Part shown: one piece after another, positions 46,961-48,113 of the stretch | Position numbering within the stretch: position 1 is the stretch's first letter | Layout of the letters: every line of letters begins with the position of its first letter | IMG/VR virus record: IMGVR_UViG_3300045988_163776 | Span: 1 to 64,000 of that record | Length of the DNA: 64,000 nt | DNA from: a virus | Direction: 5' to 3' (one strand) | Translations under genes and position numbers: made by a program | The notes under the pieces: model-generated | What the model was told of the DNA's origin: nothing | Seen by the model: the letters and a program-made list of their open reading frames with translations, nothing else | Databases searched by the model: none

Positions 46961-48113
46961 TTGATTCTAACTCATAAACAAGAAGAAGGTTTGAAAATCG
47001 CCGTAGCCAGATACAAGTCTAATGAACCTTGGACATGTATTGCTGGCTACGCTTAAAGCTGGAACTGGTAAATCAACACTTGTAAAATTCATTATACAAG
47101 CTTTAAATCTAGATCCAAAAGATGTAACATATATTGCTTATACAGGAAAAGCTGCTCTTATATTAAAAGAAAAAGGTTGCCCTAATGCAATGACATCACA
47201 TAGATTACTTTATGAATCATATCCAAGAAATGATGGAACTTTTTTCCATAAAATAAAAAGACCATTAGACCATCCTTATAAATTAATTGTAGTAGATGAA
47301 GTATCTATGTTGCCAAAAGAATTATGGGATTTGCTATTAAGTCATAAAATTCCAGTAATAGCATTAGGAGACCCCGGGCAATTAGAACCAATAGGGGAGG
47401 ACAATGGCGTATTGAAGCATCCACATATCTTCTTAGATGAAATAATGCGGCAGGCGCAAGAAAGCGAGATTATACGTTTAACAATGGATATAAGGGATAA
47501 AAAGCCATTGCATTTATATCAAGGGAACGAAGTCCAAATATATGACCCAAATGCTTTATGTGATGGTATGTTAGATTGGGCAGATCAAATTTTATGTGGA
47601 AAAAATATAACTAGAAAATATTTAAACCATCTTCGAAGAAAACAACTGTTTAACACAGAAGAATCTACTCCTTTAGTTGGAGATAAAATAATTTGTTTAC
47701 GAAATGATTATGATGTTATTTCAGATTCTGGGGAAGATCCTCTAATCAATGGAATGGTTGGTACTTTAACAGAAGTAAAATTTATTCCAAACTATCCTTT
47801 CTTAGGGACTGGGATGAAAGGAACTTTTAACTTAGGAGAAGATAAATTTGAGGGCTTAAATATGGATTTAAAAATATTTACAGAAGGAGAGCCTTTTATA
47901 AATAAAAATAATTTTAAAAAAATACCTAAACCAATGAAACCCAAAGAATTTGATTATGGGTATGCAATTACTTGTCATAAAGCACAAGGTAGTGAATATG
48001 ATAATGTTCTAGTCCTGGAAGAATTTTTGCGTGGTGGATAGCATGAACGTTGGTTATATACTGCAGCAACTAGAGCAGCAAAAAAATTAGTAATCATAAG
48101 AAATTATAAGTAA
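46961..48113 (+). CDS. Dda/RecD-like SF1B helicase interrupted inside Walker A by a 7-nt insert (putative programmed bypass); one TAG near the C-terminus
   Basis: The TTG-start frame reads LTHKQEEGLKIAVARYKSNEPWTCIAGYA then TAA. Frame +1 continues GTGKSTLVKFIIQAL...VVDEVSM...GDPGQL. GCT(47051-53)-TAAA-GCT(47058-60): a hop restores AGYAGTGKST, matching T4 Dda NGPAGTGATTLTKFIIEAL. Confidence 0.5.

Follow-up and report, generated by a model that had tools for sequence, protein, structure and literature searches.

How can a phage make a helicase from a gene that is broken, by a stop codon and a change of frame, within its Walker A motif? This question is raised by positions 1-64,000 of the IMG/VR record IMGVR_UViG_3300045988_163776, one strand read 5' to 3' (hereafter the window, i.e., the whole stretch of 64,000 nucleotides (nt) that was analysed). 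Here, a 7-nt gap in the coding sequence (TAAAGCT) separates codon 31 of a Dda/RecD2-like helicase gene from codon 32. The gap is very probably the end of a homing-endonuclease cassette, the helicase seems to have stayed functional despite it, and a short ribosomal hop over the stop codon is the best-supported way in which the two halves could be joined.

The interrupted helicase gene

A TTG at 46961 starts a 31-codon open reading frame (ORF), MILTHKQEEGLKIAVARYKSNEPWTCIAGYA, with TAA 47054-56 as its stop. Already open ahead of that stop, the +1 frame reads ...LKAGTGKSTLVKF... to TAA 48111-13. The local string is TAC GCT(47051-53) TAA(47054-56) A GCT(47058-60) GGA(47061-63) ACT GGT AAA. That is, the first frame reads ...CIAGYA up to its TAA, while the next frame resumes with GTGKST at 47061. 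Taking out the 7 nt TAAAGCT yields ...CIAGYAGTGKST..., i.e., the IAGYAGTGKST junction of intact homologues. Those at 63-83% identity have exactly the repaired junction, and all intact homologues, from 83% down to ~50% identity, show G[YFL]AG[TSAV]GK and are free of indels between the beta-1 strand and GK.

The repaired protein matches AAA_30 (1.7e-19), AAA_19 and UvrD_C_2 in Pfam. Among PDB entries, 9KWF (5.8e-17), RecD2 3E1S (2.8e-13) and T4 Dda 3UPU (8e-11) are matched, and Walker A, Walker B (DE) and motif VI are all present. Judged by these matches, the gene product is an SF1B Dda/RecD2-like helicase. The initial annotation of this DNA had placed a break in the Walker A box of a Dda-like helicase, and the break is indeed real: removal of the 7 nt restores the junction of all intact homologues, and the match to T4 Dda supports the family.

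The interruption is not a feature of a single assembly. All 14/14 independent contigs of the window's species carry the 7-nt gap, in the two haplotypes TAAAGCT and TAAAACT. The phage is frequently encountered in gut metagenomes, e.g., SRR31704256, ERR12330675 and ERZ1106934. Furthermore, the protein cluster of the downstream ORF (90% identity) has 47 members from Logan, ENA, JGI and NCBI, all of which represent the broken form with 363 or 339 amino acids (aa).

Origin of the gap

For comparison, we fetched further helicase loci as well as phosphatase loci, which are labelled by L and a number. An unbiased set of 80 helicase loci was retrieved from IMG/VR via a protein profile, i.e., the insert was not a criterion, and 7/80 loci are interrupted (L005, L044, L050, L061, L062, L065, L066). 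A looser DNA pattern enlarged the data to 73 interrupted loci in total, which represent 49 lineages at 95% identity. Within the helicase tree, the interrupted alleles are scattered (polyphyletic), and some of them are near-identical to intact ones.

Such pairs delimit the inserted element. L062 and L036 are 98-100% identical across 5 kb save for positions ~1340-2100 of L062. The same pattern is observed for L061 versus L051/L052, where flanks of 95-100% identity surround a block of ~750 base pairs (bp). In both comparisons, the right edge of the swapped block is the mini-gap. The uninterrupted sequence at this place reads, e.g., in L051 or L036, ...GGT TAC GCC GGC ACA GGT AAA.... Within the block lies the gene for an HNH endonuclease with 170-210 aa (...ALEFHHLDP..KDFTIS...C.NCH.ELH), for which PHROGs gave the assignment (phrog_2255, E=1e-25). 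By Pfam alone, the ORF is barely recognised (HNH_2, E=0.001, under the cutoff), and its protein is at most 46% identical to any HNH protein of a cultured phage. Respective ORFs are located at 1415-2014 (L061), 1375-2004 (L062), 1487-2005 (L065), 1496-2017 (L044) and 1454-1984 (L066). The 3' end of the HNH ORF overlaps, out of frame, the ribosome-binding site and the start of a cassette copy of helicase codons 1-31.

The native codons 1-31 survive upstream of the HNH ORF in L061, L044, L137, L171, L182 and L194. This native copy ends at the Ala31 codon or at most 2 codons from it, e.g., L137 reads ...VISGYA up to the break, followed by V and two stops. Since the native copy breaks at or near Ala31, the element would sit between the codons of Ala31 and Gly32, with the gap as its 3' terminus. 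In sequence, codons 1-31 of the cassette differ from the native ones: they read ...YKAHEPYTCIAGYA in L062 versus ...YHQNEPYTVI[AS]GYA in near-identical relatives. The association also holds across the loci, i.e., an upstream HNH ORF is found in 18/64 interrupted but 0/66 intact loci (Fisher p=7e-7), and the cassette leader GGAGGAAGT in 41/64 interrupted but 2/66 intact loci. As read from these alignments, a complete cassette of ~750 bp is composed of the HNH gene, a strong ribosome-binding site and a start codon overlapping the HNH end, the replacement codons 1-31, and finally GCY, a stop (TAA/TGA) and 2-5 nt.

The 7 nt had initially been considered a possible tiny inserted element of their own. 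Instead, we consider it very probable that they are the 3' terminus of such a ~750-bp homing-endonuclease cassette, which was inserted between the Ala31 and Gly32 codons, i.e., in Walker A. The window itself has no HNH ORF; its positions 46900-46960 align to the last HNH codons, with the cassette leader next. In frame, this stretch reads KERKEEVKLDSNS and a stop, compared to ...NLKEKEEVKPDGIN and a stop in the HNH ORFs. By this alignment, the window once had the endonuclease gene, of which a decayed relic of ~60 nt is left, along with the replacement N-terminus and the gap. The respective features of the window are the following.

46900..46960, + strand: decayed 3' relic of the HNH gene; corresponds by alignment to the part of intact cassettes that encodes ...CSNCHKELHDNLWTIDELNLEEKEEV, but has lost 12 nt and contains in-frame stops
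46947..46955, + strand: cassette-type Shine-Dalgarno leader GGAGGAAGT with a strong GGAGG; precedes the TTG start of the N-terminal fragment
46961..47053, + strand: cassette-borne replacement of helicase codons 1-31, with TTG start, LTxKQxxGL Q-motif helix and beta-1 strand; ends with ...CIAGYA
47051-53, + strand: proposed take-off codon GCT, the final codon of the N-terminal fragment
47054..47060, + strand: 7-nt coding gap TAAAGCT with stop TAA 47054-56, spacer A 47057 and proposed landing triplet GCT 47058-60; very probably the 3' terminus of the cassette
47061..48113, + strand: helicase body from Gly32 (GGA, proposed resume codon; Walker A GTGKST) to TAA 48111-13
48039-41, + strand: in-frame TAG (sense), just ahead of motif VI (RWLYTAATRA)

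Between the haplotypes of the window's species, the cassette region (~205 nt, 46886-47090) varies at no more than 2-3 positions, including the G/A of the gap, compared to 26/1053 positions in the body. Gene conversion of the cassette or a more recent common origin might explain this lower divergence. Directly 3' of the helicase, at 48124-48792, we find a free-standing GIY-YIG homing-endonuclease ORF (Pfam E=1.7e-8; 5 in-frame TAGs). Within the species (L210-L220), it is present in the window and in L216-L220, while L005 and L210-L215 carry a 52-aa ORF instead. That is, the GIY-YIG ORF tracks the gap haplotypes, being present with TAAAGCT and absent with TAAAACT. The ORF upstream of the cassette (46534-46899), for which no Pfam match was found, contains a tandem DDYFKIDTD repeat in the window (121 codons) and one copy in L005 (1598-1939, 113 codons).

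Two intact helicase alleles, L012 and L013, show at ~1960-2100 a leader (GAGAGGAGGAAGTAGAC..TTG) similar to that of the cassette and no gap; they may perhaps be 'healed' alleles that lost it. An Rfam scan of the whole window for introns and recoding elements returned tRNA only; a group I/II intron or an intein is not supported, and the interruption spans just 5-8 nt.

Selection on the interrupted helicase

We compared the evolution of interrupted and intact helicases based on omega, i.e., the ratio of non-synonymous to synonymous substitution rates. For independent close pairs, the median omega is 0.044 for interrupted (n=13) versus 0.026 for intact loci (n=12; p=0.29), with a range of 0.004-0.12 across the interrupted pairs. 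Clades in which all members are interrupted and free of HNH show omega values of 0.004-0.10 at a synonymous divergence (dS) of up to 0.65. The helicase body is of full length in 60/62 loci.

With the same decayed cassette in common, the window and L005 have bodies that differ at 26 evenly spread positions, of which 24 are synonymous and 2 non-synonymous. With regard to the short first half, a 29-codon N-terminal fragment is open and conserved in 73/73 interrupted loci, and close interrupted pairs show 18.5 synonymous versus 7.5 non-synonymous differences within it. On these substitution patterns, the helicase seems to be functional although interrupted, with both halves under purifying selection. 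The view of the initial annotation that the gene is otherwise intact, and not subject to random decay, is thus borne out by the full-length bodies and by purifying selection.

Variation of the gap

Among the 49 lineages, the gap length including the stop is 5 nt in 14, 6 nt in 10, 7 nt in 12 and 8 nt in 13 cases, and the stop codon is TAA in 39 and TGA in 10. Natural variants include TAAAACT, TAACT, TAAGCA and TGAAAGCA. The take-off codon is GCY in 48/49 lineages, while intact loci have GCR at this position in 19/52 sequences. The triplet directly 5' of the resume codon GGN is GCN in 21 lineages and differs from it by one mismatch (ACN, GTN, TCC) in the remaining 28, i.e., it is unrelated in none. 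For the pattern-collected loci (73 interrupted in all), we observe GCY followed by TAA/TGA, and in all 7 pattern-independent interrupted loci a sense codon is directly followed by a stop.

Gap lengths differ between close relatives. L150 (8-nt gap) and L151 (7 nt) show an omega of 0.03 for the body, and the N-terminal fragments of L111 (6-nt gap) and L154 (5 nt) are nearly identical. Since the gap length of 5-8 nt varies in this way, the joining mechanism must work in any frame.

Pairs of take-off and landing codons with a perfect match are found in the window (GCT, GCT) and in L066 (GGT, GGT). The latter (IMGVR_UViG_3300028048_000052, 2084-2115) carries a related HNH cassette with its gap three codons downstream, i.e., GGA GTT GGT/TA/GGT/AAA, which places a matched Gly pair around a gap with UAG in the ribosomal A site. 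A search of IMG/VR for further junctions of the L066 type returned L066's own contig only.

Joining of the two halves

We propose that the halves are joined by a hop of the ribosome. Starting from TTG 46961, a ribosome that arrives at the gap would have GCU 47051-53 in its P site and UAA in its A site. Termination would not take place; the peptidyl-tRNA(Ala) would unpair, the mRNA would slide by 7 nt, and the tRNA would re-pair with GCU 47058-60. Decoding would restart at GGA 47061 and result in the canonical ...CIAGYAGTGKST... helicase with zero added residues, a single polypeptide of ~43 kDa, such that the junction peptide of the hop product would be SNEPWTCIAGYAGTGK. At the other loci, the tRNA(Ala) would leave GCY, land on a GCN-like triplet 5-8 nt further on, and resume at GGN. 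The geometry of a stop-hop fits the window, i.e., a P-site codon and a stop are followed, a few nt downstream, by a cognate or near-cognate triplet that does not overlap the first. By analogy with MobA/gene 60 of phage T4, the gap probably spoils the recognition site of the endonuclease such that a genome with the cassette would be spared by its own enzyme, i.e., it probably confers immunity from self-cleavage. We consider this frame-independent short hop the best-supported way in which the helicase is made and assign it a probability of roughly 0.6.

Several observations weigh against it. The hop is reached by exclusion of alternatives. No conserved or unusually stable RNA structure was found at the gap, where the mean z is -0.26 compared to -0.71 for intact loci. 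A conserved take-off hairpin was not found either; a CUGGCU/AGCUGG stem is possible in some 7-8 nt variants and not in the 5-nt class. A gap of 5 nt is too short for an in-gap Shine-Dalgarno sequence, and the nascent peptide is just the conserved helicase N-terminus. With no stimulatory structure or recognised nascent-peptide signal, the efficiency of a hop could be low. In addition, the landing triplet is mismatched in 28/49 lineages, including the commonest 5-nt class (ACY) and the ACT of the second haplotype of the window's species. Some of the regularity is also a matter of sampling: the DNA pattern demanded GGCTAY, GCN and TRA, and the constancy of these features in the large set is thus partly built in, while only 7 interrupted loci are independent of the pattern. 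Finally, the lineages share kinship, and p-values of the triplet statistic are therefore nominal.

The initial annotation had suggested bypassing from GCT over the stop to the second, identical GCT. As the best fit to the comparative data, the bypass itself is retained, with the qualification given above that a hop is deduced from sequence. Identity of the landing codon is not needed, as ACT is found in the other common haplotype of the species and a single mismatch to GCN in most lineages.

Alternatives to the hop differ in whether the gap is decoded, skipped by a new start, ignored by selection or removed. The gap could be partly translated by conventional recoding that varies with its length, whereby the P-loop would gain two residues (A31-x-(A/T/V)-G-x-G-K-[ST]). 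Gaps of 7 nt would require a +1 frameshift (GCU UAA A, giving ...GYA-K-A-GTGK), gaps of 6 nt read-through, and gaps of 5 and 8 nt -1 or +2 shifts. In the window, the +1 product would comprise the peptides SNEPWTCIAGYAK and AGTGK, with a junction like ...IAGYAKAGTGK. A product with two extra residues can be written for each gap class and still fits the AxxxxGK[ST] consensus, and since the triplet ahead of GGN encodes small residues only (A, T, V, S), selection at the protein level could explain its conservation. Shifts of +1 at a sense codon before a stop are also known elsewhere, i.e., from prfB and the Listeria phage PSA. Nevertheless, we regard this explanation as unlikely: it calls for four separate mechanisms at one homologous site, swapped between close relatives (L150/L151, L111/L154), and none of the -1, +1 and +2 frames (CGC, CUU, UUA or CUA) allows the P-site tRNA(Ala) to re-pair. 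Furthermore, zero intact homologues have an indel between the beta-1 strand and GK, and the one residue that would be added in L066 would upset the GxxxxGK spacing. A single fixed +1 frameshift of the prfB/PSA type was rejected, as the frame relation varies (0, +1, +2) and GCU to CUU does not re-pair. Slightly less likely still is a split protein, in which a 31-residue peptide and a re-initiated body associate as in the MobE-split NrdA and T4 gp39/gp60. Such a split would be independent of the frame and would account for selection on both pieces; homing-endonuclease splits that retain function are documented, and the downstream frame of the window offers an ATG (47022) and a TTG (47040). Yet the downstream frame of 38/73 loci, among them all those with a 6-nt gap as well as L003, L061 and L065, contains no ATG, GTG or TTG before Walker A, and re-initiation was therefore rejected as a general explanation. 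Start codons near Walker A are without a Shine-Dalgarno sequence, and it appears structurally implausible that the beta-1 strand of a P-loop NTPase is provided in trans by a peptide of 31 residues.

Both halves could also be remnants of a pseudogene, i.e., the cassette killed a dispensable helicase whose ORF looks intact because insertions are recent or constantly re-created from intact alleles. The cassette is mobile, many insertions have near-identical intact relatives, and dda of T4 is non-essential. This scenario is improbable given that all-interrupted, HNH-free clades evolve like intact clades at the omega and dS values reported above, that the window and L005 share a decayed cassette and yet accumulated 24 synonymous versus 2 non-synonymous body changes, and that nearly all bodies are of full length with the short N-terminal fragment open and conserved throughout. 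Even more doubtful is a removal of the 7 nt before translation, be it by RNA editing, a mini-intron or an exact DNA deletion in a sub-population of genomes. It would be frame-independent and give the canonical protein, and the genome is rich in introns and homing endonucleases. However, excision of 5-8 nt of RNA has no recognised mechanism in bacteria or phages, neither an Rfam match nor a conserved structure is observed, and the gap is present in all 14 species assemblies. A sequencing or assembly error, for which only the general prior attached to any lone frameshift speaks, has a negligible probability; it is already refuted by the gap in 14 independent assemblies, by the 47-member cluster from four sources and by homologous gaps in 73 loci.

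Genomic context and further interrupted genes

The initial annotation had also referred to a phosphatase site. This site, at ~11.16 kb, indeed has the same layout: GAC and a stop are followed by a second GAC 4 nt on. The break at ~11159-11168 (region 11125-11175, ORF to 11878) reads ACA GGA GAC TGA C TGC CAT GGT and splits the GDxHG motif of a calcineurin-like phosphoesterase, with MLSVIKNWLITGD and its stop on one side and DCHGQF... on the other. After repair, the protein matches Metallophos in Pfam (1.8e-12), and homologues at 44-47% identity are intact. L208, a diverged relative (1054-2030), has a different 4-nt insert at the same spot (GGT TAGC GAC), directly 3' of a 300-aa homing endonuclease (phrog_374 at 3e-58, phrog_9084 at 3e-22). 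In the window, no endonuclease gene adjoins the phosphatase site. From this comparison, the phosphatase site is probably the same kind of scar.

It had further been argued that codon-stop-codon arrangements at catalytic motifs are noteworthy and that a search for the motif could reveal more of them. The former holds on account of homology across the break and of recurrence; the bare motif is frequent by chance. The search is no suitable detector: run over the whole AT-rich window, 'codon, stop, N, same codon' occurs ~50 times, mostly at gene junctions or overlaps or out of frame. That is, the helicase site is significant because homology spans the break and recurs in other phages, and not because of the motif.

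Three further genes of the window appear interrupted. A DNA polymerase III alpha (DnaE-like) gene at 50278-55174 is split, i.e., its PHP part ends at 51639 (...NLPFWR and a stop), the remainder runs from ~52643, and a GIY-YIG ORF (51857-52609) lies in between. Either a group I intron or the insertion of a homing endonuclease probably accounts for the split; there is no Rfam match at the gathering threshold. An anaerobic ribonucleotide reductase (NrdD-like, 55754-58997) is interrupted at 57580-58485 by an ORF (57733-58344) that resembles HNH- or AP2-type homing endonucleases, which recalls the T4 nrdD intron. A RecJ-like DHH exonuclease (43001-45847) is apparently split into 43001-43678 and 44675-45847 by a GIY-YIG ORF (43765-44544).

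The window's phage has ~30% GC and uses TAG as a sense codon, apparently for Gln. Many ORFs of the window contain 1-7 in-frame TAGs, including conserved genes (helicase 48039-41, methylase PIL-TAG-K), and in several loci, e.g., L001, L090 and L129, TAG occupies the invariant Gln (Q7) of the helicase Q-motif. The distribution of TAG along the window is uneven: ORFs at ~24-64 kb merge into long genes with 1-7 in-frame TAGs (e.g., 48039-41, 48846-48), while most ORFs at 0.4-12.7 kb are without one. A confinement of interrupted alleles to TAG-recoded phages was considered and rejected, as in-frame TAGs are common in intact and interrupted members alike. The sole tRNA in the window is a tRNA-Leu(UAA) at 105-181, i.e., neither a tRNA-Ala nor a suppressor tRNA is found within the 64 kb. 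Should tRNA(Ala)UGC be the only tRNA(Ala) available to the phage, its weak wobble pairing would account for take-off at GCY and landing on GCA. No close relatives were found among cultured or GenBank phages, where just short matches at ~70% identity to helicases of Enterococcus phages were obtained.

At about even odds, we put forward a wider reading: in large TAG-recoded gut phages, a family of homing-endonuclease cassettes would employ a natural, widespread and frame-independent hop of 5-8 nt across a stop codon. These cassettes would target the most conserved codons of a gene (the helicase Walker A and possibly the metallophosphatase GDxHG), supply a replacement for its 5' end, and end in a mini-gap that prevents self-cleavage while sparing the protein.

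Comparison with known systems

The architecture of the cassette is known from the MobA element and gene 60 of T4-like phages (Manning & Atkins, bioRxiv 10.1101/2022.08.31.505936; Bonocora et al. 2011, as far as cited there). In both systems, an HNH gene lies inside an ORF of essential-type DNA metabolism, and the next ORF, whose start lies within the element, shares an out-of-frame overlap with the endonuclease ORF. Both elements bring a homologous replacement of the parental coding segment (HomR). The non-coding gap opens with a stop directly behind the take-off codon and closes with a landing triplet beside parental sequence. Insertion is recurrent and independent at one site, near-identical relatives are free of the insert, and the endonuclease is often lost while the gap is kept. 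For MobA/gene 60, the gap blocks self-cleavage (bioRxiv 10.1101/2022.08.31.505936).

The differences are as follows. The target is the Walker A of an SF1B helicase here, while it is the Toprim domain of topoisomerase II (Topo2L) there, and the gap comprises 5-8 nt compared to 20-50 nt. The take-off stem-loop, in-gap Shine-Dalgarno sequence and nascent-peptide signal of gene 60 are not detected here. Ala (GCY to a GCN-like triplet) takes the place of the Gly codon GGA. The helicase cassette replaces the whole 5' end of the gene, such that the upstream remnant is a useless stub, in contrast to the ORF1 of MobA/gene 60, which is required and carries a C-terminal extension. At ~170-210 aa versus 269-279 aa, the HNH protein is also shorter. 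According to the same study, MobA elements are confined to Topo2L, and the bypass cassette 'remains unique' (bioRxiv 10.1101/2022.08.31.505936).

With regard to the hop itself, stop-hops are known from synthetic constructs in E. coli (Weiss, Dunn, Atkins & Gesteland 1987), which are described, in those parts of a 2016 recoding review that concern them (PMC5009743), as artificial and of low efficiency. According to the same parts, these share matched codons around a stop, re-pairing a few nt on (+5, +6), independence of the frame and promotion by a slow A-site codon with the arrangement reported here, which differs in being natural, conserved and under selection. There, natural short-distance counterparts are said to be 'long presumed', while of natural in-frame stop hopping 'no occurrences are known'.

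The nearest short-gap candidate is the terminase gene of the Streptomyces phage Hau3 (PMC10732093) with its two 10-nt UUA-initiated inserts, for which bypass was proposed and is not fully proven. Common to both are short frame-breaking blocks in an essential phage gene, flanks that are contiguous in relatives, and a hard-to-decode codon at the 5' end of the block. In contrast to the helicase, Hau3 has a rare sense codon (UUA) in the A site, a regulatory role has been suggested, there is no homing endonuclease, ~3 genomes are concerned, and strong local RNA structures are predicted. The mitochondrial byps of Magnusiomyces capitatus (Lang et al. 2014; Nosek et al. 2015), as far as summarised in PMC5009743, are likewise numerous mobile inserts in coding sequences that are neutralised by translational bypass. 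They differ, in that summary, by a length of 27-55 nt, their mitochondrial location, an unassigned codon in the A site, a GC-cluster-like nature and the lack of an endonuclease gene. MobE in nrdA of phage Aeh1 is similar in that a free-standing HNH endonuclease resides within an ORF whose function is kept. There, two polypeptides assemble via added tails, while most loci reported here have no start for a second part.

Our literature search for a helicase element of this kind found nothing. By comparison with these systems, we infer that what is new is a second family of bypass cassettes borne by homing endonucleases, which resides in a helicase gene and has an ultra-short gap. Gene 60 of T4 was regarded for 35 years as a near-unique case of programmed bypassing in bacteria and phages, and the 2022 survey of its homologues still confines the cassette to topoisomerase genes. 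Our results point to a second, apparently unrelated family that follows the same evolutionary logic of endonuclease, replacement coding segment and protective gap. They also suggest that selfish endonucleases can invade the codons of catalytic motifs while the host gene survives.

If the hop is real, it supplies the natural short stop-hop long expected by recoding researchers, as a second independent family beside T4 gene 60 that works nearly without the RNA signals of the latter. Dozens of natural variants, with four gap lengths and both matched and mismatched landings, would then be at hand to define the minimal needs of take-off and landing. It would further follow that genes of this kind are routinely taken for truncated or dead ones by gene callers and pseudogene filters; databases hold this helicase as a fragment of 339 or 363 aa.

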